Assembly: GCA_944381075.1 (NCBI GenBank)
Contig: CALWJT010000016.1
Location: forward strand, 4,155 to 68,154
DNA length: 64,000 nt
Direction of reading: 5' to 3'
DNA from: an uncultured Clostridia bacterium
GTDB lineage: Bacteria > Bacillota > Clostridia > Oscillospirales > CAG-272
In this document: positions 1 to 21,388 of the stretch, in pieces
Numbering within the stretch: position 1 is the stretch's first letter
How the letters are laid out: each line of letters starts with the position of its first letter
Made by a program: the position numbers and the translations under genes
The notes under the pieces: model-generated
The model's database searches: none
What the model was told of the DNA's origin: nothing
What the model saw: the letters and a program-made list of their open reading frames with translations, nothing else

Positions 1-1
1 G

Positions 2-190
2 AAAGCCTTTGAAGATATGCTCGCCGCTATTCTTAAGCAGTATGACGATACGACGGAAAAGATGGCAAAGCTCAAAGCCGAGGGCAAGGAGAAAACCGTT
101 ACCTACCGCCAGCTTTTTGCGAGTAAGCTGCAACTTCAGGCGATGTTGTCCTATTATCGGACTTACGGGCTTTTAGAGAATGATGGATAA
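2..190 (+). CDS. 3' part of a small hypothetical protein (runs off window start)
   Basis: Open frame KAFEDMLAAILKQYDD...YRTYGLLENDG ending TAA at 188-190. Confidence 0.5.
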   Translation, partial: KAFEDMLAAILKQYDDTTEKMAKLKAEGKEKTVTYRQLFASKLQLQAMLSYYRTYGLLENDG

Positions 191-193
191 CAA

Positions 194-355
194 ATGATGA
201 TAAAACGCAGCCCAATTAAGGATATTGAAATCAAGCATCTGTTGAACAACTCCTTGACCAATGACATTAGTAGAAGTGAAGTCTACATGGAAGGCATCGA
301 CCATAGCTACGATTACAAGGGTTATACTACCTTTAAGACGGAGGAACTATCATGA
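194..355 (+). pseudogene. C-terminal fragment of a Fic (protein adenylyltransferase) gene
   Basis: Translates MMIKRSPIKDIEIKHLLNNSLTNDISRSEVYMEGIDHSYDYKGYTTFKTEELS, resembling the C-terminus of class III Fic proteins (ERSP.KD.EIK..L..ALT..I..REVYMKGID.SY); no HPFxxGNGR catalytic loop present. Confidence 0.6.
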
Positions 356-1257
356 ATTTAATGGAATTATCATCAGACGGTAAAGTTGCATATTTGATTA
401 AGCCTATCTTGAAAGTATTGCAAGAAGCCGGCGGTCAATTAGAACGTTCTGAAATCAAAGAGCGGATTGCTGATTTAGATGATCAAATAGCAGAATTTTC
501 CGAAATTGTTAAAAAGTCAAAGAAAACGGGTAATCCATATAAGGAGTTTAATTACAAGTTTAACTTTGCCATTAAAGATTTGCTGTTTAACAATTGATTG
601 ACATATACTAACTCTTCTCCAATCACTTTGACGGAAAAGGGATTATATCTTGAGTTAGATACCCTTGATGTTCAAAAAGATATAATTGAACCCTCAAAAA
701 AGCATTGGGACGAACTGAGTAATAACAATAAGAAAAATAAAATTGCTGATGTTAGCGACAACGAAGAAGAAACACAGGCAGAAGAAAAGATCAAAGATGA
801 TTTCAAAGAAACATTGCTTGCATCAATAGCTAGAATGAGTCCAAAAAAATTTGAAGCTTTTTCAAGAGCGTTGCTGAACCGTATGGGGGTTGAATTTACC
901 GAAAAAGGTGCCCAGATTAGCAACGACGGTGGAATTGACGGATATGGCTATCACATAGACGCAAATGATTTCAGGACAACACGAGTAGTTATACAATGCA
1001 AACGATATAATGTTTCACCTGTTACAGAACCTGAAATCAATCAGTTCTTAGGTGCTATGAATAAAAATCAAGCGGATTATGGTGTGTTCATTACCAACGG
1101 TAGATTTACAAATTCAGCCAGAGTGGCTGCGAGAGAAGGTTCGCCAATTACGTTGATCGACGGCAATGATTTGGTTAAATTGGTCATAAAGTATGAGCTG
1201 TATATTACACCCGTTAAAACTTATGTGTTAGACGAATTTTATTTTTCAGAGGAATAA
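352..1257 (+). pseudogene. mrr: Mrr-family (type IV) restriction endonuclease interrupted by an in-frame TGA at 595-597
   Basis: N-terminal winged-helix part (PILKVLQEAGGQLERSEI) and C-terminal Mrr_cat part (FEAFSRALL..MG, DGGIDG, IQCKRY, GVFITNGRFT, ITLIDG) are in the same frame, separated by one stop. Confidence 0.85.
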
Positions 1258-1321
1258 ACGAACATATCGCTATTCACTCTGATAATGGTAAAATTCAAAA
1301 TTAAGAGTGAGGAGGATAGCA

Positions 1322-4300
1322 ATGAAATCCAACTTTGAATTTCTAAATAGATATTGGCCTGTGCTGTCACAATTAGGCGCGAATGCAGAAAACTATCTGT
1401 ATTCTGATTCCAATGCGTGTATCTATAAACTAGGTATGTTTGCCGAGCGCCTGGTTCAGGAAATTCTGGTATTTGAACATATGGACGAACCCAAGACAGA
1501 TAATACACACGCTAATCGCATTCGTTTGCTGAAGCGTGCCGGCCTTCTTCCTCACGAGATTGATAATACACTATATGTTCTCCGTAAAACCCGCAATTCC
1601 GCAGTGCATGCAGGAACAGATTCCGTAGATGAAGCAAAAACGCTTCTTTCCATGACATACAATTTAGCGGTTTGGTTTATGGAGACATACGGCGACTGGG
1701 GATTCCTTGCCGAAGATTTTATTATGCCCGAAGAAGTACAGCAGGCAGACTTAAAATTAGTCATAGAAGATCAGGAGAAAAAGATTGCCGAACTGTCAAA
1801 AAAACTTGCAGAAGTAACAACGGCGGTTTCGGGCACAACGCAGAAAGAACGTGCAAAACGGGCTGAAACGGTTTCTTTTATGATACAGTGGAATGAAGCG
1901 CAGACCCGCCGTTTGATCGACGAGCAGCTTCGCAAAGCAGGATGGGAAGCCGATACCACAAACCTGCGTTACAGCAAAGGTACCCGCCCAGCAAAAGGCA
2001 GAAATATCGCTATCAGCGAATGGCCTACCAATTCTGCTTTTTATAAAAACGGATATGCAGACTATGCCTTCTTCATTGGGGAAAAACTCGTCGCTTTAAT
2101 GGATGCGAAAAAGGCTTCGGAAGATGTTGCTTCTACCATTGATGTGCAGGTAAAAGATTATGCAAAGCATATTAAAGAGGAACACGCAAGATATGTTATC
2201 GGTTCGTGGGGCGATTATCAGGTGCCTTTCCTGTTTGCTTCAAACGGCAGAGCATTTCTGGAGCAGCTGCGAACAAAATCCGGCATATGGTTTTTAGACG
2301 CAAGAAAAACATCCAACCAGTCCTATCCAATCCGAAATTGGTTCAGTCCCAGCGATCTGGAAGAAAAATTAAGTCAGGATATTGACAAAGCCAATGAAAA
2401 CTTATCTAACTATAACGATTCGTTTATGGAAGACCCTACCGGTCTGAATCTTCGTGACTATCAGATGAAAGCGGTCAACAAGGCGACCGAAGCAATCATG
2501 AACGGAAGCCGTACGGCACTGCTTGCAATGGCAACCGGTACCGGTAAAACACGAATCGTGCTTGGTCTGATTTATAAAATGTTGGAATCCAAACGCTTCC
2601 AGAGAATTCTGTTTCTGGTTGACCGCATAGCGCTCGGCGAACAGGCAATGGACACTTTTAAGGATGTCAAACTAAAAGATTTAATGACATTAAATGAAAT
2701 CTATGAAATTAAAGACATTGAGGATAATGAGATCAATCTGGAAACTAAAGTTAGCGTTTCTACTGTTCAGGGATTATTAAAGCGCACCATTCTGTCCGAA
2801 ACGCCGGATTTAATGCCCGGAGCATTCGATTTGATTATTGTAGACGAAGCGCATAGAGGATATATTCTGGACAAAGAAATGACCGAAGAAGAAATTCTCT
2901 ATGATAATCAAGATGACTATATGAGTAAATATAAACAGGTCATCGAATATTTTGACGCAGTAAAAATTGCTCTCACGGCTACCCCTGCTCTGCACACCAC
3001 TGAAATTTTCGGTGAGCCGATTTTTACATACAGCTACCGGGAAGCCGTGATCGACGGTTGGCTGGTCGATCACGACCCGCCTTATATCATCAATACAGAT
3101 TTTATTGAAAACAAAGCGAAATTCAAAAAGGGGGAAACGCTTGCTCAGTATGATCCCAACACACATGAGCTGATAAATGGGACAGTATTACAGGACGAAT
3201 TGGATTTTGATGTTTCGGAGTTCAATAAAAAAATCGTCCTTCCCGACCATACCCGTAAGGTTTTAGAGGAAATATCCAATTACATAAACCCCGAAAGCGG
3301 CGAAAAAACATTGATTTTTGCCGTAAACGATAACCATGCGGATTGCATTGTAGATACGCTTCGTGATATTTATAAGCCTTATGGCATTTCCAATGAGGCG
3401 ATTATGAAAATCACAGGCAAAACCGCCGGCGGCAACAAAAAGAAAATTTTGCAGGTAATCAAACAGTTTAAAAACAACCAATATCCGAATATTGCCGTTA
3501 CCGTTGATTTACTGACAACCGGCATCGACGTTCCGGCTATCTGCAACCTTGTGTTTATGCGGAAGATTAACAGCCGTATTCTGTTTGAACAGATGCTGGG
3601 GCGTGCCACCCGCCTATGCCCTGAGATCGGCAAAACGCATTTTAACATTTTTGATGCGGTACGAGTGTATGAGGATTTAGACCCCACGTCCGGAATGAAA
3701 TCTGTTTCCGTAAACAAAACAATGTCGGAGCTACTGGAAGATCTGTTCCGTGGCAGCGGAGAGAATAAGCAGCCGGTTAAAGATCGTATTCTTGCAAGAA
3801 TTCAGCGCAAAAACAACGATCTTACACCGGAGCAAAAATATGAGGTCACGGAACGCTTGGGCGGTATAAATTTAAGAGCCTACGTCCACAAGCTGAAATC
3901 CTGCACGGAAAAAGTATTTATCGAGACCTGCAAAAAGGATAAAGACTTTTTGCTGTGGGTGGATTCGCTCAAAGGCAGGAAAAAAGGTTATTTCTATTCT
4001 GAAAAAGAAGACACTTTGAAAGAAACTACCCGGGGCTACGGCAATACGGAAAAGCCGGAAGATTATTTGGAAGCTTTTACGAAATTCGTAAATGAGAACA
4101 AAGATAAAATTGAAGCGATTCGAATTGCCTGCACCAAACCAAGTAGCATGACCAGAGCACAGCTCAAAGAGCTAAAACTCGCTTTGGATAAAGAGAATTT
4201 TACGGAAACCAGCCTGAACGAAGCCACCAGCGCCGTTACCAATGCGCATATTGTGGCGGATATTATCGCTCATGTTCGCAAGGCTGTGCTGAAAACGCCG

Positions 4301-4558
4301 CTGTTTAACCATGATGAGCGTGTTATTGCCGCTTTTGCTAAACTAACTGCCGCACATCGTTTCAACAAAATGCAGCTTGACCTTTTGGAAAAAATCAAAA
4401 CCTATATGCTGCACGAAAGTATTTTGAATACGGAAACCTTTGAAGCCCCCGCATTTAAGATGGAGGGCGGTTTTGCCCGCTTCAACAAAAAATTCGGCGG
4501 CACGCTCGCCGACATTATTCGGGAGATCAACACTTACATTTATGAAGGAGCCGCATAA
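1322..4558 (+). CDS. hsdR: Type I restriction-modification endonuclease subunit R (EcoKI-like)
   Basis: GGAGGA RBS before ATG 1322; ADY...DAKK nuclease motif, MATGTGKT Walker A, DEAH, LTATP, QMLGRATR. Confidence 0.95.
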   Translation: MKSNFEFLNRYWPVLSQLGANAENYLYSDSNACIYKLGMFAERLVQEILVFEHMDEPKTDNTHANRIRLLKRAGLLPHEIDNTLYVLRKTRNSAVHAGTDSVDEAKTLLSMTYNLAVWFMETYGDWGFLAEDFIMPEEVQQADLKLVIEDQEKKIAELSKKLAEVTTAVSGTTQKERAKRAETVSFMIQWNEAQTRRLIDEQLRKAGWEADTTNLRYSKGTRPAKGRNIAISEWPTNSAFYKNGYADYAFFIGEKLVALMDAKKASEDVASTIDVQVKDYAKHIKEEHARYVIGSWGDYQVPFLFASNGRAFLEQLRTKSGIWFLDARKTSNQSYPIRNWFSPSDLEEKLSQDIDKANENLSNYNDSFMEDPTGLNLRDYQMKAVNKATEAIMNGSRTALLAMATGTGKTRIVLGLIYKMLESKRFQRILFLVDRIALGEQAMDTFKDVKLKDLMTLNEIYEIKDIEDNEINLETKVSVSTVQGLLKRTILSETPDLMPGAFDLIIVDEAHRGYILDKEMTEEEILYDNQDDYMSKYKQVIEYFDAVKIALTATPALHTTEIFGEPIFTYSYREAVIDGWLVDHDPPYIINTDFIENKAKFKKGETLAQYDPNTHELINGTVLQDELDFDVSEFNKKIVLPDHTRKVLEEISNYINPESGEKTLIFAVNDNHADCIVDTLRDIYKPYGISNEAIMKITGKTAGGNKKKILQVIKQFKNNQYPNIAVTVDLLTTGIDVPAICNLVFMRKINSRILFEQMLGRATRLCPEIGKTHFNIFDAVRVYEDLDPTSGMKSVSVNKTMSELLEDLFRGSGENKQPVKDRILARIQRKNNDLTPEQKYEVTERLGGINLRAYVHKLKSCTEKVFIETCKKDKDFLLWVDSLKGRKKGYFYSEKEDTLKETTRGYGNTEKPEDYLEAFTKFVNENKDKIEAIRIACTKPSSMTRAQLKELKLALDKENFTETSLNEATSAVTNAHIVADIIAHVRKAVLKTPLFNHDERVIAAFAKLTAAHRFNKMQLDLLEKIKTYMLHESILNTETFEAPAFKMEGGFARFNKKFGGTLADIIREINTYIYEGAA

Positions 4559-6081
4559 TGAGTACCATCGATATTGTTCAGAAACTATGGAATCTCTGCA
4601 ATGTCCTTCGTGACGACGGTATCACCTATCACCAGTATGTTACGGAGCTCACCTATATCCTGTTTCTGAAAATGCTGGATGAAACCGGTGAAGAAAACAC
4701 CCTGAAAGCCGATGTGTTAAAGGCATACCAAAAATCTTTGGAGCAGTATGCCCGCAAAAAAGGCAAAGCGGTGGAACAACTGACCGAAGAAGAAAAGGAA
4801 TCCCGAAAGCCTCTGCTTTACAACTACTCTTGGGAGTACCTTACCACCTTGGAAGGCATTGAACTGAAAAACTACTATATGAAACTACTTTCTGAGCTTG
4901 GCAGCACCGGCATTCCTAAAATCAGCGATATCTATGCCAAAGCGGTTTCCAGTATTGAAGAGCCGAAAAACTTGCAGAAAATCATTTCAGAAATCAACAA
5001 ACTGGATTGGTTTGAAGCAAAGCAGGAGGGTCTGGGCGACCTCTACGAAGGCTTGCTGCAAAAGAACGCCGACGAGAAGAAGTCCGGCGCAGGTCAGTAT
5101 TTCACGCCTCGTGTGCTCATTGATGTGATGACCGATCTGATTTCCCCGAAACTCGGCGAAAAATGCTTTGATCCCGCCTGCGGTACTTTCGGTTTTATGA
5201 TCTCCGCCTATCAGCACGCTGCCTGCGGTGTGGATCTCTACTCTCTTTCCGATCAGGAAATGGCGGCGTTTCAGGACTCTTTCTATGGCGTTGAGCTGGT
5301 GCATGATGCGCATCGTCTGGCTCTGATGAACGCTTATCTGCACAATGTTCCGGCGCACATTTTCTGCGAGGACTCCCTGTCTCCGAGCGCCAAAAGACTC
5401 AAAGGCTTTGATGTGATCCTAACCAACCCGCCCTTTGGAACCAAAAAAGGCGGCGAGCGCACTTCCCGTGACGATATCTCATTTCAAACTTCCAACAAAC
5501 AGCTGAACTTCTTGCAGGTGATTTACCGCAGCTTGAAAGCCGACGGAAATGCACGCTGTGCCGTTGTTTTGCCGGATAATGTACTGTTTGCCGACGGTGA
5601 CGGGGTAAGCGTGCGCAGAGAGTTAATGGATTTTTGCAATCTCCATACCATTCTGCGCCTGCCCACCGGTATTTTCTATGCACAGGGAGTGAAAACCAAT
5701 GTGCTTTTCTTCACCCGCGGCAAAACCGAAAAGGACAACACCAAAGAGGTTTGGTTCTATGATCTGCGAACCAATATGCCCTCTTTCGGCAAGACAACGC
5801 CGCTGAAAAAAGAGCATTTTGAGGGTTTCGTAAAAGCCTACACCGCCGAAAGCCGCCACGCTGTGGAGGACGAACGCTGGAACGTATTTACAAGAGAACA
5901 AATTGCTGAAAAGGGCGACACCCTTGACCTTGGTCTGATTCGTGACGATTCCGTTTTGGATTATAATGATCTGCCCGACCCGGCGGACAGCGCCGAGGAA
6001 GCCGCCGCCAATCTGGAAGAAGCGGTTGACCTCTTGATGAGCGTGGTGAAAGAACTGCGGGCGCTGGAGGTGCAGGACTGA
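4558..6081 (+). CDS. hsdM: Type I R-M N6-adenine methyltransferase subunit M
   Basis: VQKLWNLCNVLRDDG, GQYFTP, DPACGTFGF, NPPF motifs; start overlaps hsdR stop. Confidence 0.95.
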   Translation: MSTIDIVQKLWNLCNVLRDDGITYHQYVTELTYILFLKMLDETGEENTLKADVLKAYQKSLEQYARKKGKAVEQLTEEEKESRKPLLYNYSWEYLTTLEGIELKNYYMKLLSELGSTGIPKISDIYAKAVSSIEEPKNLQKIISEINKLDWFEAKQEGLGDLYEGLLQKNADEKKSGAGQYFTPRVLIDVMTDLISPKLGEKCFDPACGTFGFMISAYQHAACGVDLYSLSDQEMAAFQDSFYGVELVHDAHRLALMNAYLHNVPAHIFCEDSLSPSAKRLKGFDVILTNPPFGTKKGGERTSRDDISFQTSNKQLNFLQVIYRSLKADGNARCAVVLPDNVLFADGDGVSVRRELMDFCNLHTILRLPTGIFYAQGVKTNVLFFTRGKTEKDNTKEVWFYDLRTNMPSFGKTTPLKKEHFEGFVKAYTAESRHAVEDERWNVFTREQIAEKGDTLDLGLIRDDSVLDYNDLPDPADSAEEAAANLEEAVDLLMSVVKELRALEVQD

Positions 6082-7334
6082 TGGCAAAGGCGAAGAAAAA
6101 AGAAAGCCTGCTGCCCGAAGAACGCTTGCGGGCAGCATTGGTGCCGGACTGGGAACAGCCCTACAAGGTGCCGGAGAATTGGTGTTGGGTTCATTTGCTT
6201 GATTCTTTTGAAAACTGCACTGATAGTAAAAAGAAAATCCCCCAGAAAGAATATTTACAAGATGGAGAAATTGCTGTTGTTGACCAAGGACAGAATCTGA
6301 TAGGTGGTTATACAAATGATAGAGAAATGATTTTCGCTGGAAATGTGCCTGTCATCATTTTTGGTGATCATACAAGATGTATCAAATATATTGATTTTCC
6401 TTTTGCCCAGGGTGCTGACGGTGTTAAAGTGTTAAAACCAAAGCAATTTTTCAACACAAAAGCATTTTATTATGCGTTTCAAACTGTTGACATTCCTAAT
6501 ATGGGTTATCGCAGGCACTTTCCCCTATTTGACAAATACGAAATTCCAGTTCCACCCCTCTCTGAACAACAGCGCATTGTTGACCGCATTGAAAGCCTGT
6601 TTGCCAAGCTGGACGAGGCAAAGCAAAAGGCACAGGACGCACTGGACAGCTTTGAAACCCGTAAAGCCGCAATCCTCCACAAAGCCTTCACCGGAGAACT
6701 CACCGCCCAGTGGAGAAAAGAACACGGCGTGGGGATGGAGAGTTGGAAAAACAGAACACTCTCACAGCTTGCTAAACAGATAAAAGCTGGTGGAGATAAG
6801 CCAGATGATTTTACAGAAACAGCAGACAAAATACGCAACATTCCAGTTGTGGCGAATGGTATTACCAATGAAGGAATCGTTGGATACACTTCAACAGTTC
6901 GATTTTCGGGAGAAACTATTACAGTTGCAGGAAGGGGAACAATCGGATTTTCAATTTATAGAACATACCCTTTTTTCCCTATTGTTCGACTAATTGTAAT
7001 TGAACCAAAAGATATTGTGAAAGCGCCTTATATTAAGTATGCTTTTGATGCTTTTCCAGAAAACGGAACTGGATCAAGCATTCCTCAATTAACAGTTCCT
7101 ATGGTTAAAGAGAAGATTATACCTTTACCTAAACTAGATGAACAAACCGAAATTGTCCGTATCCTTGATGATTTCCTCGCCAAAGAACAGCAAGCTAAAG
7201 AAGCCGCCGAAGCAGTGCTGGAGCAAATCGATCTCATTAAAAAATCCATCCTCGCCCGTGCTTTTCGTGGCGAGCTCGGCACCAACGACCCTGCCGAGGA
7301 AAGCGCAGTGGAGTTGGTGAGGAACATGATTTAG
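6081..7334 (+). CDS. hsdS: Type I R-M specificity subunit S
   Basis: Two AT-richer TRDs separated by conserved helices PPLSEQQRIV...AILHKAFTGEL and PKLDEQTEIV...SILARAFRGEL. Confidence 0.95.
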   Translation: MAKAKKKESLLPEERLRAALVPDWEQPYKVPENWCWVHLLDSFENCTDSKKKIPQKEYLQDGEIAVVDQGQNLIGGYTNDREMIFAGNVPVIIFGDHTRCIKYIDFPFAQGADGVKVLKPKQFFNTKAFYYAFQTVDIPNMGYRRHFPLFDKYEIPVPPLSEQQRIVDRIESLFAKLDEAKQKAQDALDSFETRKAAILHKAFTGELTAQWRKEHGVGMESWKNRTLSQLAKQIKAGGDKPDDFTETADKIRNIPVVANGITNEGIVGYTSTVRFSGETITVAGRGTIGFSIYRTYPFFPIVRLIVIEPKDIVKAPYIKYAFDAFPENGTGSSIPQLTVPMVKEKIIPLPKLDEQTEIVRILDDFLAKEQQAKEAAEAVLEQIDLIKKSILARAFRGELGTNDPAEESAVELVRNMI

Positions 7335-7722
7335 CTGAAAGAAAGTAGTAAAGTGCGTCTTATCTATCTTCTACAGACACTCTCAATCCATACTTAGCTC
7401 AAATATTTGATGGCGTCATACAGTCTCAAGAGACGGAAAAAAGTTTTGGAAAGAAGAAAGAAAAGCAAAATCACTTTGCAAATAGCATCGGCGGACAAAT
7501 TGCATTCAAACTTTTTGGGAAAGGGGTATTAAGACCCATTCAGAGCGCTCCGATGATGATCGAGCAGCCGTTTCAGTTTTGGAACCATTTCTTCGTTCAA
7601 ATGGAAGAATAAATACTGCTTTTGCTTCGGAGGACAAATGGTCCAACCATGATGGAACATTTGAGTTTGTACCTGATCCGGATAATTGGCATTGAATTTT
7701 TCAACATTTTCCAAAAATCCAG

Positions 7723-7751
7723 TTGACATTTTCAAAAATTTCATATATAAT
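7723..7751 (+). promoter_or_regulatory. Perfect sigma-A promoter reading into the sRNA repeats
   Basis: TTGACA (7723-7728) - 17 bp - TATAAT (7746-7751). Confidence 0.75.
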
Positions 7752-7883
7752 AAAATCAGCGAGGCAAGCTGTCGTTCTGGCAAATGACAGCTCTGCATAA
7801 AGAAGTGTAACGAGCACTCCCTCATACAACCGGATGACCGGCGCCCCTGCGGACAGTATATCAGATTTCCGCGGAGATTGCAA
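7752..7883 (-). ncRNA. Putative structured small RNA unit 1, with promoter
   Basis: Minus-strand TTGCAA(7878-83)-17-TATACT(7855-60), then three hairpins: ccgg-tcat-ccgg, agtg-ctcgtta-cact, gctgtcatt-TGCCAG-aacgacagc, then a T-rich tail. Confidence 0.6.
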
Positions 7884-8100
7884 GAGGCTCCGGCGAAAAA
7901 GGGGCTTTTTTTAAGCCCGAAAAAAGCATCAAAACAAAATAAGGCGGGCTACCGTCCTGGCAGACGATAGCACCTGCATAAAGAAGTGTGAGAGGCACTC
8001 CCTTATACAACCGGATAACCGGCGCCCTGTGGACAGTATATCAGATTTCCGCAGAGATTGCAAGAGGTTTCGGAAAAATAGGGCTTTTTTATCATGCCCT
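7760..8100. repeat. Tandem duplication with 180-bp period
   Basis: ctgcataaagaagtg...ggacagtatatcagatttccgc(g/a)gagattgcaagagg occurs twice, offset by 180 bp (CTGGCA at 7777/7957, TTGCAA at 7878/8058). Confidence 0.9.
7932..8063 (-). ncRNA. Putative structured small RNA unit 2, with promoter
   Basis: TTGCAA(8058-63)-17-TATACT(8035-40); hairpins ccgg-ttat-ccgg, agtg-cctctca-cact, gctatcgtc-TGCCAG-gacggtagc with compensatory stem changes versus unit 1. Confidence 0.6.
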
Positions 8101-8115
8101 TTTATAAGTGGAAGA

Positions 8116-8162
8116 AAAATCCGTGCTAAGACACTTCAGTGACTGTCTTGGTGCGGATTTTT
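8116..8162 (+). terminator. Long hairpin (terminator or attenuator) upstream of a small ORF
   Basis: aaaaatccgtgctaagaca...tgtcttggtgcggattttt; pairs with G-U wobbles on the plus strand. Confidence 0.5.
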
Positions 8163-8184
8163 GAATGCGTTTAAGGAGAAAAAG

Positions 8185-8280
8185 ATGACAAGCCACACAA
8201 GCTTCGCTGCGCTGGAAATGCAGGAAAAGAAATGGCGGAAAAAAGGGACGCTGTGCGTCCGTTTTCAGATGAGAAATTAG
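8185..8280 (+). CDS. Possible 31-aa small ORF
   Basis: AAGGAG RBS before ATG; MTSHTSFAALEMQEKKWRKKGTLCVRFQMRN. Confidence 0.3.
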   Translation: MTSHTSFAALEMQEKKWRKKGTLCVRFQMRN

Positions 8281-8309
8281 GCTTTACGGAAAAAGTTCTC
8301 TGAGAGAAC

Positions 8310-8442
8310 AAAAAACCGCCGGACTTTTCGAGGGCTGGCACCCTCAAAAAGCTCCGCTTGGGGTGTTACGGGCACCTTACGCGACCGAAAGAATCGGAAC
8401 CGGCGGCAAGGCTATTATACCATGTTTTTTCCCCTTTTGCAA
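8310..8442 (-). ncRNA. Putative structured small RNA unit 3 (diverged), with promoter
   Basis: TTGCAA(8437-42)-17-TATAAT(8414-19) with TG extension; hairpins ccga-ttctt-tcgg, ggtg-cccgtaa-cacc, ctttttgaggg-TGCCAG-ccctcgaaaag, then a T6 run. Confidence 0.6.
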
Positions 8443-9271
8443 GGGGGAAAGGTGGGAAAATTGCTTTGTCGGTGGCAGCATCTGACAAAATCGGTGGATA
8501 AAGGGATTACATAAATAGATGTAATGCCGCGTAGGGTTGCAGAAAAGGTGGATTACCGTCTCCTGACTGGGCCCTGCGCGGTGTTTTGTTTTCATCGGAG
8601 GACTGATTGGCTGCCCCTCCGTGCGTGTGGAGTGCTTCTCCGTGAAGCAGCACCTGCTCCCGCGCGCGGAGGAACCGGCAATTTTCAGTTCTCCGTTTCA
8701 GTTTATATAGATAAAAAACAGCTAACATCCTCTTTATACCGCAGGCGTCCGGGTTTTTCAAACAGATCCCCATCCCACTCCTTTCTTTTGACGGACGCCT
8801 GCGGTACTGTCTCATAACGGGAAAAATAGAGGCTCCGTTCCTTTGCGGGACGGACAAGCAAGCAGCCGGACGGCCCCATGACCGACCGGCTGCTGCTATG
8901 CGGCGGGGAAACACAAGTGCAGGCCGCCGCGCCGGCTCTTTTGACTTCCTTGAGAAAACCTCCATCCGCGGGCGCGCTTACGACCCTCGACTTTCTATGC
9001 AGACGCATCTCTCCGCCGACGACAGGACGCAGCGATCCCGCGCCGCCCGCGGACGCGGAACAGATTGGCCGCCTGCGCATTCCCTTTCCCCGCGCGGCGC
9101 ACCTGCGTCCGGCCGCTCCCTATACATCCGCGCGTGCGCTCCGCCGCGGGGACCTCGCCGGTAAATTTTGCCCCAGCACCGCGCCGCCCGCCGCTTTTTC
9201 TCACCTATCCCCTGCCCGGCATCCCTTTCGGAGAGCTTGAACAAAACGCTTGTAACATCCGCCTCGGACCG

Positions 9272-9892
9272 TCACCGGATGAAATTCGTCCGGATTTTCG
9301 GTTCGTAGGCTGGATACGGGACGCCCGCCTGCCTTCCAGCCTCGATGCAGCGCAGAAGCCATGTCATGTTTTCGGCAAGGGTCCGGATCGTCTGAAGCCC
9401 CTCCAAATCCTTGCGGACCTCCTCCGGCGTATTCCCATGCACCTGATTCCAATACTGCGAGCTCACGACCGGCATATTCGTCATCATAAAATATTTATTG
9501 AGGATCTCAAAGGCCGCGGAAGCGCCGCCGCGGCGGCAGGATACCACGGCAGCCGCCGGCTTTCCCGCCATCTTTCCGCCGCCCGCATAAAACAGCCGGT
9601 CGAGAAAAGCGGTCACTTGTCCCGAAACGCCCGCGTAATACACGGGAGAGCCCACAAGGATGCCGTCGATCTCATCCAGCTTGTCGATGACTTCATTCAC
9701 CTTGTCGCCGACAAAGCAATGCCCCGTATTTCGACATGCTCCGCAGGCGATGCAGCCGGCGACCGGCTTCTTGCCGAGATAGACAAGCTCCGTTTCAATG
9801 CCGTTTTTGGAAAAGACCGCCGCCGCCTCGCAAAGCGCGGTATAGGTGCAGCCCTTCTCGTTCGGACTGCCGTTGATGAGCAATACTTTCAT
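9272..9892 (-). CDS. Flavodoxin family / iron-sulfur flavoprotein (NADPH-dependent FMN reductase)
   Basis: MKVLLINGSP, CIACGAC...C, GSPVYY, SCRRGG. Confidence 0.9.
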   Translation of the reverse strand: MKVLLINGSPNEKGCTYTALCEAAAVFSKNGIETELVYLGKKPVAGCIACGACRNTGHCFVGDKVNEVIDKLDEIDGILVGSPVYYAGVSGQVTAFLDRLFYAGGGKMAGKPAAAVVSCRRGGASAAFEILNKYFMMTNMPVVSSQYWNQVHGNTPEEVRKDLEGLQTIRTLAENMTWLLRCIEAGRQAGVPYPAYEPKIRTNFIR

Positions 9893-9951
9893 ATCGATTC
9901 CACCTCTGTTTTGTCATGATAATATCAGTATATTACAATTCGGCCAAAAAA

Positions 9952-21313: not shown

Positions 21314-21388
21314 GGCCCGTTGGTCAAGCGGCTAAGACATCGCCCTCTCACGGCGAAAACATGGGTTCGATTCCCGTACGGGTCACCA
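21314..21388 (+). tRNA. tRNA-Glu (anticodon CTC)
   Basis: GGCCCGTTGGTCAAGCGGCTAAGACATCGCC-CTCTCAC-GGCGAAAACATGGGTTCGATTCCCGTACGGGTCACCA; cloverleaf with encoded CCA. Confidence 0.97.

Follow-up and report, generated by a model that had tools for sequence, protein, structure and literature searches.

We identified, by sequence analysis, a family of small cloverleaf-shaped RNAs that is real, multi-copy and apparently undescribed so far. Three of its members lie in the window, by which we mean the whole 64,000-nt stretch of DNA from an uncultured Clostridia bacterium that was analysed. The explanation that we prefer, to which we give about an even chance of being right, is that these units are chromosomal, loop-addressed countertranscripts that attenuate a long plus-strand RNA without a replication gene. 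The fold and its covariation, the promoter and terminator motifs, the architecture, the loop co-variation and the co-varying alternative pairing all come from analysis of the DNA sequence. An earlier sequence-only reading of this DNA had proposed a cis-antisense RNA family. This proposal is supported here, with the facing promoter conserved across the family.

The small RNA units and their family

The minus strand of the window carries, at 7750-8406, three small RNA (sRNA) genes of ~96 nt each, with their own promoters and U-tails. All of the elements that the sequence-only reading had assigned to the three units are present, at the coordinates that it gave. The features on this side of the locus are as follows.

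7750-7851, minus: unit 1, a type-A sRNA of ~96 nt, with P3 loop CUCGUUA, P4 apex UGCCAG and a U-tail
7883-7855, minus: promoter of unit 1, TTGCAA-17-TATACT
7902-7918, minus: short hairpin GGGCTTAAAAAAAGCCC in the interval between units 2 and 1, terminator-like, with CTTTTT after it (sequence motif)
7930-8032, minus: unit 2, a type-A sRNA, with P3 loop CCUCUCA and P4 apex UGCCAG
8063-8035, minus: promoter of unit 2, TTGCAA-17-TATACT
8246-8260, minus: terminator-like hairpin GGACGCACAGCGTCC followed by CTTTTTT, 3' of unit 3 (sequence motif)
8295-8309, strand not assigned: palindromic hairpin GTTCTCTCAGAGAAC, found after type-B units (sequence motif)
8305-8406, minus: unit 3, a type-B sRNA, with P3 loop CCCGUAA and P4 apex UGCCAG
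8442-8414, minus: promoter of unit 3, TTGCAA-17-TATAAT

A TG precedes the -10 box in all three promoters, and the scanned region holds 8 promoter-like sites, compared with 1.7 +/- 1.4 in shuffles. Units 1 and 2 form a direct repeat with a spacing of 180/181 nt and an identity of 86-89%, which bears out the tandem duplication described earlier. A hairpin equivalent to that at 8246-8260 is kept after type-B units in C9, L040, L041, L045 and L046, and the GAAGTTCTCTGA motif of loci with a single unit occupies the same relative position as the palindromic hairpin at 8295-8309.

The three units are predicted to fold with energies of -45.3 (z -4.71), -47.8 (z -5.21) and -48.0 kcal/mol (z -4.74), respectively, and none of 200 shuffles matched any of them. 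They share one architecture, a four-way junction of stems P1, P2, P3 (with a 7-nt loop) and P4, and the U-tail comes directly after P1. The P2 stem-loop is CCGG-UUAU-CCGG, or CCGG-UCAU-CCGG in unit 1. The hairpins recognized by the sequence-only reading are correct; it overlooked the closing stem P1, which makes each RNA a four-way junction. The invariance that it saw in the UGCCAG loop of P4 likewise holds inside the array of the window and breaks down across the family, where this loop is locus-specific. By eye, a tRNA-like cloverleaf was ruled out: U33/purine-37 are missing from the 7-nt loops, and the arms are of unsuitable length.

Covariance-model scores were 80.5, 84.4 and 60.9 bits for units 1, 2 and 3. 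From G-U pairs and folding energies, the type-A structure was assigned to the sRNA strand in 15/15 loci and for units 1 and 2 of the window; for unit 1, the energies are -45.5 on the minus strand and -29.1 on the plus strand. Unit 3 folds almost equally on both strands (-45.5 and -43.2).

The sequence-only reading had suggested a covariance-model search of Clostridia and a comparison with Rfam. The search found 61 distinct units, all of them in uncultured gut Clostridia. Among 151 genomes of the same taxonomic family, 13 carry the RNA, against none of 24 from sister families, and genome G000 has 10 units. Copies are dispersed and frequently lie at contig ends. Other GC-rich repeats adjoin some of the arrays. 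Compensatory changes were seen at 18 of 28 base pairs, and paired cells make up 87.7% of the family alignment against 32.5-45.5% when the partners are slid. The covariation values were reached by 0 of 500 shuffles, a figure that, like the other shuffle and permutation figures given here, overstates significance because related loci are not independent.

In the comparison with Rfam 15, no characterised family was matched by the units. At the gathering threshold, the whole window yielded only a tRNA at 21314-21385. The best match in 7300-8900 with E up to 10 was mir-149 (31.2 bits against a threshold of 79), no score came near threshold in 8400-9330 or in L099 2700-3420, and in the 16 related loci the matches were confined to lysine riboswitches and domains of group II introns, located elsewhere. 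The families without a match include ctRNA, RNAI, CopA, type I antitoxins, skipping-rope, LhrC and RsaE. In the literature the motif appears to be undescribed; the human-microbiome structured-RNA surveys (bioRxiv 10.1101/2020.03.31.018887, PMC2864571) may hold it in their supplements.

The facing promoter and the predicted long plus-strand RNA

The perfect opposite-strand promoter noted earlier is present in the window, and it is conserved: it is perfect (12/12) at the same place in 27 of the 61 distinct units and scores 11/12 in 6 more, with no conservation of the spacer. The features of the plus strand are as follows.

7723-7751, plus: P_as, sigma-A-type TTGACA-17-TATAAT, score 12/12, predicted start near 7758
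8121-8162, plus: T1, hairpin CCGTGCTAAGACA...TGTCTTGGTGCGG followed by ATTTTT, an inverted repeat resembling an intrinsic terminator
8373-8383, plus: candidate antiterminator strand CACCTTACGCG, forming the 3' side of the unit 3 P3 complement and able to pair with the 5' arm of T2
8526-8592, plus: T2, long hairpin with 5' arm GCCGCGTAGGG at 8526 and 3' arm CCCTGCGCGG at 8572, followed by TGTTTTGTTTT at 8582-8592
8597-8710, plus: D3, conserved junction domain (GGAGGACTGA...hairpin...CAGTTCTCC) followed by GTTTATATAG; 67.2 bits with model R3

Transcription from P_as would run into the complements of the sRNA genes; the -10 box of this promoter and the U-tail of unit 1 overlap. Promoters of this perfect TTGACA-17-TATAAT form number 67 in genome G000, where some of them stand ahead of tRNA genes. 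Downstream of P_as the order is anti-unit 1, anti-unit 2, T1, anti-unit 3, T2 and D3, so that T1 follows the complements of units 1 and 2, the complement of unit 3 is a second structured site of the plus-strand RNA, and D3 is its downstream part. The units are self-promoted, as had been claimed, and are not self-contained: a larger plus-strand unit, reaching to at least ~8710, encloses them.

The order promoter, anti-sRNA, T1, second site, T2 and D3 is kept in 11 of 11 single-unit loci, all 11 of which have a hairpin and T-run homologous to T1. Arrays and single-unit loci alike retain the T2 motif GCG-GTTTTTGTTT, and the strong matches of model R3 (8/8, in 5 genomes) all adjoin sRNA arrays on the strand opposite the sRNAs. 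The T1, T2 and D3 regions of the window fold better on the plus strand, with energies of -34.5 against -23.4 on the minus strand for 8064-8175 (T1) and -54.8 against -33.3 for 8443-8600 (T2). Across loci, the plus strand folds better in the second-site/T2 region in 12 of 15. Scanning of L092, L094 and L099 revealed no other promoter recurring at a conserved position, and a minus-strand promoter for the second site (B*) was found neither by scan in three single-unit loci nor by eye. The predicted target is a long non-coding transcript that is structured and has, outside the antisense region, a second binding site.

RNA-library contigs cover 7786-8015 and 7832-8025, leave the flanking coding genes uncovered, and end 3-13 nt before the predicted start of unit 2; they derive from an unstranded metatranscriptome of one study. 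The contigs of the chicken-gut runs (X18/X19) do not include T1, unit 3, T2 or D3, and such lack of cover is no evidence of silence. We infer that both strands are transcribed as drawn here.

The absence of a toxin-like ORF, as first remarked in the sequence-only reading, extends to the family. Three-frame translations of both strands of 29 units gave no conserved ORF, loop-length changes (6 vs 7 nt) break any reading frame in the sRNA complements, and none of the short ORFs with ribosome-binding sites in the flanks is conserved. It is nevertheless conceivable that the locus is a module like a type I toxin-antitoxin system, in which the sRNAs would be antitoxins silencing a harmful plus-strand product and the toxin would have decayed where an ORF is absent, as in the window. 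In about half of the loci, D3 is indeed followed by an ORF that has a ribosome-binding site and encodes 99-151 aa (L049, L079, L094 and L041/L046, with DUF6809 in L040/L045/L047), and convergent, overlapping, multi-copy and copy-specific RNA pairs are reminiscent of Sib/Ibs-type families. However, the other half of the loci, approximately, have no coding sequence after the long RNA, and the window itself has no candidate ORF after D3. The ORFs that follow D3 are mutually unrelated, belong to no Pfam or PHROG family and, over their first 70 residues, look by eye unlike small hydrophobic peptides. We consider this explanation quite improbable.

DUF6809, which adjoins four arrays, was rejected as a partner of the RNA. 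It is found in 28 of 61 genomes, mostly without the RNA, which occurs in 6 of the 61, and none of 12 other DUF6809 loci has the module; 2 of them have a perfect promoter upstream, followed by an apparent tRNA gene. Three ORFs of the window were also rejected as genes, none of them having a family. The amino-acid identity of the ORF at 8507-8965 (minus) to its C9 copy is 73%, lower than the DNA identity of 88%. The others lie on the plus strand at 8524-8817 and 9065-9919, and the real gene opposite the latter encodes an FMN reductase (9272-9892, minus).

No protein neighbour recurs among ORFs of at least 50 aa within 4 kb of 37 loci. Other members of the family adjoin genes for ValRS, IleRS, Mn-catalase, an ABC transporter and further housekeeping functions, and no rep gene or plasmid context was found beside these chromosomal neighbours. 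The link to a defence island that the sequence-only reading had drawn is not supported, and the position of the window array there is incidental.

Loop addresses and proposed attenuation

The apical loops of P3 and P4 vary from locus to locus, also within one genome, and more than 20 different P3 loop sequences occur across the units of the family. The P3 loop is found again exactly at the second site of its own locus in 13 of 16 loci, compared with 15 of 238 cross-locus pairs. For the P4 apex, at least 6 bases are shared with the own second site in 16/16 loci, compared with 66/238 across loci. Of the 14 arrays listed, 7 have type-B and type-A units with the same two loops. Full loop identity is absent in 3 of the 16 single-unit loci and in 5 of the 14 arrays. 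In the window, each of the three units has a P3 loop of its own and only the P4 loop is common. Between the orthologous arrays L040 (CCUCGUA) and L045 (CUCGCA), both loops have changed together. On this evidence, the P3 and P4 loops behave as a locus-specific address. The earlier suggestion that the 7-nt loop is a specificity code thus agrees with its recurrence at the second site, and has to be widened to include the P4 loop.

Loops of this kind might also belong to sibling trans-acting sRNAs of the tandem LhrC or RsaE/RoxS type, whose C/U-rich loops would target ribosome-binding sites of mRNAs elsewhere while the convergent transcript and the second site act as sponges that set the level of free sRNA. 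Each unit has a strong promoter and a terminator of its own, the units are multi-copy (10 in G000), and many loops are C/U-rich and resemble anti-Shine-Dalgarno sequences (for example CCUCUCA, CUUCCA and CCUCGUA). Minimum-free-energy (MFE) folding suggests that T1 releases a discrete antisense RNA of ~210 nt, which would suit a sponge. However, there is no conserved seed, and Rfam gives no match to any such family. The loops differ within one genome and yet match the cis-linked site, and therefore private rather than shared targets are indicated. We regard trans-acting sRNAs as an unlikely explanation.

The same loop data bear on the possibility that the units are a repeated, perhaps mobile, non-coding element (MITE-like or a recombination hotspot) whose hairpins and promoter-like boxes have no regulatory role. 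The patchy distribution of the family (13/151 genomes), its dispersed copies, often at contig ends, and the GC-rich repeats beside some arrays are in line with such an element. On the other hand, the fold is maintained by compensatory changes, promoter hexamers persist although their spacers have diverged, and loop identity is maintained between diverged scaffolds. The L040/L045 and L041/L046 arrays are orthologous, lying at the same chromosomal place in two species, and no copy was found in phage, plasmid (72,556 records) or IMG/VR collections. This possibility is very remote in our judgement.

Returning to countertranscript attenuation, two features of such systems are present. Judged from conserved promoter and terminator motifs, a small antisense RNA is encoded within the 5' leader of the target, on the other strand, and sites resembling intrinsic terminators (T1 and T2) lie in the target downstream of the complementary region. 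In the window, the duplex of 8373-8383 with the 5' arm of T2 (8526-8536) has a predicted energy of -17.4 kcal/mol. In 12 single-unit loci, this pairing has a mean energy of -13.95 kcal/mol within the own locus and -10.97 kcal/mol across loci, and 1 of 5000 permutations was as good as the own-locus pairing, a figure likewise inflated by the relatedness of the loci.

However, MFE folds form T1 in 11 of 11 loci whether the antisense region is blocked or free, and in the window T2 forms in both states. We do not claim an sRNA-dependent switch at T1, as MFE gives T1 in either state. Because T1 and T2 form regardless, the case for sRNA-dependence of termination consists of a kinetic argument and the co-varying pairing, the latter modest at 3 kcal/mol. 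Efficient termination at T1 would also leave little polymerase arriving at the second site, which counts against attenuation. The attenuation-type control suggested by the sequence-only reading thus fits the plus-strand terminators that follow the complementary regions and the co-varying alternative pairing, and sits less well with the MFE folds.

If this control operates, the nascent plus-strand RNA would display the complementary loops twice, in the true antisense region and again at the second site before T2. Loop-loop kissing of the sRNA on the nascent RNA might capture the strand beside the P3 complement, which, if free, would pair with the 5' arm of T2. With this strand held, T2 would form and transcription would halt before D3 and anything downstream, so that termination would be caused by sRNA binding. 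T1, interference by convergent transcription and decay of the duplex may contribute in addition.

A bolder proposal, which we put forward tentatively and hold to be rather doubtful, is that the locus is an RNA-only device. Orthogonal, loop-addressed four-way-junction sRNAs would gate, at two serial terminators, the completion of a large non-coding RNA (0.6-1 kb) made from a promoter of stable-RNA strength. The insulated copies would resemble incompatibility groups without a plasmid, a replication gene or a dedicated protein, and the D3 RNA would be either a new functional class of non-coding RNA or an RNA-level addiction or mobile element.

Comparison with known systems

Countertranscript-driven attenuation is a textbook mechanism that, to our knowledge, is known almost only from the control of plasmid replication and conjugation. 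Uncultured gut Clostridia appear to use the same logic on their chromosome, in a multi-copy, protein-free module. Its unusual features are the four-way-junction sRNA, the pair of loop addresses co-varying with a second site outside the antisense region, and the two serial terminators. Natural variation would provide dozens of orthogonal sRNA/target pairs as a test set for kissing-loop specificity, and the loop pairs may serve as a parts list for orthogonal RNA switches in Firmicutes. The module has also brought to light D3 as a conserved RNA domain.

LhrC1-5 and RsaE/RoxS are tandem sRNAs of ~100 nt with their own promoters and pyrimidine-rich hairpin loops. All copies there share one seed and target unlinked mRNAs, whereas the loops of the present family vary and match a cis-linked site. 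In Sib/Ibs and other multi-copy type I toxin-antitoxin systems, the genes of the antisense sRNAs occur in tandem or scattered, and each RNA tells its own partner from the others; in contrast to Sib/Ibs, no toxin ORF lies opposite the sRNAs here. The 6-7 nt loops of the stem-loops in ColE1 RNA I/RNA II and R1 CopA/CopT make the first contact and determine specificity (incompatibility), and loops of this size are also the putative specificity determinant between similar systems in the present family. The ColE1 and R1 RNAs, however, are replication primers or rep mRNAs of Gram-negative plasmids, the Rfam RNAI and CopA models are unmatched here, and the present sRNA is a closed four-way junction.

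Conjugation control by prgQ/Anti-Q of pCF10 in Enterococcus faecalis involves a choice of terminator in the sense transcript. As in the part of that system described in PMC3181467, the present loci have convergent promoters and a small antisense RNA facing a nascent sense transcript. They differ from pCF10 in having no conjugation genes, pheromone system or plasmid, in the promoter and terminator that belong to the sRNA itself, and in being multi-copy.

The closest known systems are those of countertranscript attenuation in Gram-positive plasmids, namely pIP501 RNAIII/RNAII and, of the same kind, pT181 and pAMbeta1. A 2007 study by Heidrich and Brantl, cited in PMC4981023, is reported to show that two loop pairs must interact. 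As in pIP501 and pT181, a structured antisense RNA of ~100-136 nt is encoded inside and opposite a 5' leader with a strong convergent promoter, the leader contains, past the complementary region, an intrinsic terminator (here predicted), and recognition would proceed via hairpin loops, here judged from their sequences. For pIP501, PMC4981023 describes attenuation in the repR leader by RNAIII, an RNA of 136 nt, together with a modulating effect of convergent transcription. In contrast to these plasmids, the present family is chromosomal, has no replication gene, adjacent Cop-like repressor gene, plasmid match or Rfam ctRNA match, and is present in several copies per genome with different loop addresses. 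At its second target site, resemblance to the sRNA is confined to the loops, its terminators are two in series, and the product under control would be the structured non-coding RNA D3, either alone or with unrelated small ORFs.

The three units and their shared fold

We identified three units on the minus strand at 7750-8406, each with a promoter that carries an extended -10 box, in agreement with the sequence-only reading, which had described three self-promoted minus-strand units with their hairpins and loops. The opposite-strand promoter that it had named, here called the facing promoter, matches the consensus at 12 of 12 positions and overlaps the U-tail of unit 1 with its -10 box.

Promoters of the units in the window
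7883-7855, minus: unit 1 promoter, TTGCAA-17-TATACT
8063-8035, minus: unit 2 promoter, TTGCAA-17-TATACT
8442-8414, minus: unit 3 promoter, TTGCAA-17-TATAAT
7723-7751, plus: facing promoter, TTGACA-17-TATAAT

Folded alone, all three units form one common four-way junction. It consists of a closing stem (P1), whose 3' strand is followed by a U-run, a short hairpin (P2; CCGG-UUAU/UCAU-CCGG in units 1 and 2), a long hairpin with a 7-nt loop (P3; CUCGUUA, CCUCUCA and CCCGUAA in units 1, 2 and 3) and a second long hairpin, with the apex UGCCAG in the window units (P4). The hairpins had been listed correctly before; P1, and hence the junction, had been overlooked. The folding energies of units 1, 2 and 3 are -45.3, -47.8 and -48.0 kcal/mol (z = -4.71, -5.21 and -4.74), which none of 200 shuffles reached. 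Units 1 and 2 form a direct repeat with a spacing of 180/181 nt and 86-89% identity, the 180-bp tandem duplication proposed earlier, and unit 3, as also proposed, keeps the fold in a sequence unlike theirs.

In an alignment of 29 units, whose pairing figures lean towards the structure because it was fitted to the model and holds related sequences, 87.7% of cells pair as the consensus structure requires; shifting the partners by one to three columns lowers this to 32.5-45.5%. Both sides change in 18 of 28 pairs, and the observed figures were not attained in any of 500 shuffles. MAFFT and RNAalifold, applied independently to eight copies, returned the same helices with compensatory changes in 9 of 31 pairs. 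Type-A units, which share the scaffold of units 1 and 2, are much more stably folded as the sRNA strand than as its complement at all 15 loci compared, and so are units 1 and 2 themselves, because many G-U pairs of the sRNA strand would become A-C on the opposite strand.

Contigs from two chicken-gut metatranscriptome runs of one study cover 7786-8015 and 7832-8025. They end 3-13 nt before unit 2 is predicted to start and leave the neighbouring coding genes uncovered; in a DNA run, cover extends without a break over 7300-8324. The stretch 8423-8599 is covered in a third library, guessed to be RNA. Lacking strand and ends, and possibly derived from DNA carry-over, these contigs are only a weak hint of unit transcription.

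Distribution of the family and its surroundings

When the window was scanned, no Rfam 15 family reached threshold for the units and none came close in their region, which settles the Rfam question raised earlier: the family is absent from that release. In the window's own genome (G000; 2.0 Mb, 47 contigs), BLAST of the region found further copies on contigs C9, C23 and C11, and a first covariance model, trained on eight copies, found 10 units at E <= 1e-6. A second model was built from 29 units. The RNA is present in 6 of 61 related genomes, G000 included, all from one taxonomic family; by covariance model, none of 24 genomes from the order's other families carries it. With the 29-unit model it was detected in 13 of 151 genomes sampled from the same family (10 of 97 genera). 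Searches of 50,697 phage and 72,556 plasmid records returned nothing for the sRNA family, nor did IMG/VR for its 19-nt consensus pattern. This pattern matched 55 stretches in a collection of species-representative genomes, and the model confirmed 50 units in 33 of them, labelled uncultured Clostridia, Eubacteriales, Oscillospiraceae or Lachnospiraceae and for the most part of animal or human gut origin; it confirmed no matching stretch from another phylum. The sRNA family is new.

Two scaffold types occur, type A in units 1 and 2 and type B in unit 3. Type B is always the first unit of an array (a multi-unit locus); after it lie the palindrome GTTCTCTCAGAGAAC and a GGACGC..GCGTCC-T terminator. 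A third variant (5' ACCGUGGGUGCCGGAUCU..) heads the loci L009 and L017 (G000:C11 14641-15248 and C14 1033-1123), whose far flank is unlike the junction domain D3 described below and ends likewise in a hairpin followed by GGCGGTTTTTC. In a related genome, a lone type-B unit without promoter (L044; G011:C21 607353-607453) abuts a truncated DUF6809 gene; its homology to the arrays L040 and L045 stops about 5 nt upstream of the RNA 5' end, resembling a rearrangement junction.

On one side of the units, Mrr-like ORFs precede a type I restriction-modification operon (352-7334).

Restriction genes of the window
352-597: Mrr_N, first of two ORFs of an Mrr-like restriction endonuclease
598-1257: Mrr_cat, second ORF
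1307-4558: HsdR of a complete type I restriction-modification operon
4558-6081: HsdM
6081-7334: HsdS

On the other side, 8684-8910 is 90-93% identical to G000:C21 5211-5437 and C20 4774-4899, copies in which the covariance models found no sRNA unit. It contains a long-stem hairpin around a purine-rich loop (8740-8803; GCAGGCGTCCG...CGGACGCCTGC) and gives a weak RAGATH-21 match (18.6 bits against a threshold of 70.3). The non-coding stretch 8830-9270, between D3 and an FMN reductase gene, reaches 72% G+C and folds better on the minus strand (-204.3 vs -171.0 kcal/mol); within it, 8909-9177 is covered by a contig from one of the two metatranscriptome runs. A separate structured RNA is one possible reading, a long 3' UTR another. 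The window has one copy (8924-9048) of a non-coding, GC-rich repeat, about 80-190 nt long with the core TATAGAAAGACGAGGG..CCCGCGGATGGAGG, which forms four to five tandem copies beside the C9 and C23 arrays (C9 28595-29340, or L002 490-1250; C23 106663-107208).

The facing promoter and the plus-strand module

A perfect TTGACA-17-TATAAT promoter lies directly after the U-tail and points into the unit in 27 of 61 distinct units, with an 11/12 match in 6 more. Units with this promoter are nearly always the last type-A unit of their locus; on C11 each of both type-A units has its own. The 17-nt spacer is not conserved. G000 holds 67 perfect promoters of this form against 0.14 predicted from base composition, several of them before tRNA genes and many before mRNAs, so that a perfect match is the usual form of a strong, real promoter in this lineage. 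Promoter usage in G000 is unusually consensus-like. From its sequence, the facing promoter speaks for strong transcription of the sRNA complement. A 71-aa ORF beginning just past it (7529-7744, minus) has no ribosome-binding site, Pfam family or counterpart at other arrays and is unlikely to be a gene. Lysine riboswitches lie directly past the facing promoter in two related single-unit loci (L099 2479-2652; L126 6775-6948), and the L047 array has group II intron domains at a distance of 6.5 kb (L047 1819-2112).

At loci with a single type-A unit, about 450-600 nt are conserved on the far side of the sRNA gene, a flank that no Rfam family matches. The window keeps this layout.

Module order, read along the facing promoter in alignments of 13 and 11 loci, with window positions
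1-2: complement of the sRNA, then of its promoter
3: conserved T-rich stretch
4, T1: hairpin CCGTGCC..GGCACGG, then ATTTTTTGTT (8121-8162, plus)
5: motif GAAGTTCTCTGA
8295-8309: palindrome of the window
6, second site: about 150 nt, three hairpins (in the window, the complement of unit 3)
7, T2: hairpin, then GGTTTTTGTTTC (8526-8592, plus)
8, D3: junction domain GGGAGAGC..GTCTGCC-hairpin-..GCTCTCC (8597-8694, plus; then GTTTATATAG at 8701-8710)
9: motif TTACATATAT
10, several loci: TGCGACAC and a strong terminator

Three loci were scanned, and no promoter was found at a conserved position besides the facing promoter and that of the sRNA. The region of the second site and T2 folds better on the plus strand at 12 of 15 loci, the opposite of the sRNA itself. 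In the window, the plus strand is favoured for T1 (-34.5 vs -23.4 kcal/mol), T2 (-54.8 vs -33.3) and D3 (-61.6 vs -51.8), and unit 3 folds about equally on both strands (-45.5, -43.2). A T2-D3 model gave 8 strong matches in 5 genomes, all adjoining an sRNA array on the strand opposite to the sRNAs. The module is larger and more intricate than the sequence-only reading described.

The P3 and P4 loops vary between loci, even inside one genome, and are repeated within one locus.

Loop sets of G000 (P3 with P4 where noted)
CUCGUUA, CCUCUCA, CCCGUAA (P3) with GCCA (P4)
CUUCCA with GUAACGA
CUCGUA, CCUGUA with CUGGUAA

The exact P3 loop recurs about 200 nt upstream (in the sRNA sense), at the second site, in 13 of 16 single-unit loci against 15 of 238 cross-locus comparisons, and the P4 apex, counted as at least 6 shared bases, in 16 of 16 against 66 of 238. 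The earlier idea of the loop as a specificity code is supported and extends to P4. In arrays, the type-B and type-A scaffolds are very different, yet their P3 and P4 loops are identical in 7 of the 14 arrays listed; the window and one other array have only the P4 loop in common. Between orthologous arrays of two species, both units have changed jointly, from CCUCGUA (L040) to CUCGCA (L045). At single-unit loci the second site lacks its own promoter, and the strand on which it is structured is the plus strand. On the simplest reading the plus-strand RNA would show the complements of both sRNA loops a second time, in hairpin loops, and the sRNA would dock there by two kissing contacts. A third contact, seen by eye, is possible between the conserved second-site loop AAGGCAGAC and the sRNA 3' CUGCCUU.

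Possible attenuation, the controlled product and known systems

In a classical attenuator, the 5' arm of the terminator has two possible partners, its own 3' arm and a strand further upstream. The layout at T2 is of this kind: its 5' arm is complementary to the second-site stretch that directly follows the P3 complement on the 3' side, and the two co-vary between loci (CCCCAC/GUGGGG, CCGCCCC/GGGGCGG, CCUCAC/GUGAGG, CCCUGC/GCAGGG). Over 12 loci the mean duplex energy is -13.95 kcal/mol within a locus and -10.97 across loci, and the own-locus pairing energy was equalled by 1 of 5000 permutations; in the window, 8373-8383 pairs with 8526-8536 (-17.4 kcal/mol). An RNA holding the upstream strand would decide for termination at T2. 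Against such a switch, T1 and T2 both form in minimum-energy folds with the antisense part either blocked or free, and therefore any switch would need to be kinetic. As modelled, the role of T1 may be simply to terminate a discrete antisense RNA about 210 nt long.

In the window, no coding sequence follows D3: the apparent ORFs are spurious, and the first real gene beyond is the convergent FMN reductase (9272-9892). At about half of the loci, D3 is followed by a small ORF that has a ribosome-binding site. Its product is a protein of 99-151 aa without Pfam or PHROG family or, in three to four arrays, DUF6809, which was rejected as a module partner, being widespread without the sRNA. At the other half, a terminator or a convergent gene comes next. 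As no protein family recurs around the sRNA loci either, the controlled product is not pinned to any protein. It may be the D3 RNA itself, and there is a substantial chance that a new functional RNA is hidden in the module. A genome can hold up to 11 copies of DUF6809, often at contig ends; at L071 (G002) and L076 (G023) its genes lie in an apparent integrated element adjoining a tRNA gene with a perfect consensus promoter.

The usual type I toxin-antitoxin arrangement was rejected, since the sRNA complements contain no conserved ORF; the absence of a toxin-like ORF noted earlier holds opposite the sRNAs. A seed-sharing family of sibling sRNAs was likewise rejected for the module. The earlier interpretation largely stands as to a cis-antisense family, a loop code and an attenuation-like layout; its link to a defence island does not.

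By our analysis, the closest in logic is the countertranscript-driven attenuation of Gram-positive plasmids. A 136-nt antisense RNA of pIP501 causes premature termination in the repR leader, and convergent transcription itself tunes the system (PMC4981023); an entry in its reference list indicates that the interaction of two loop pairs is required (PMC4981023). The window module, having no plasmid, rep gene or Rfam match, is not a member of this type. Unlike it, the module has a second target site that shares only the loops, a pair of terminators in series, an sRNA folded as a four-way junction, and several orthogonal copies on one chromosome. In our judgement, the sRNA family is a variant of a known regulatory kind.
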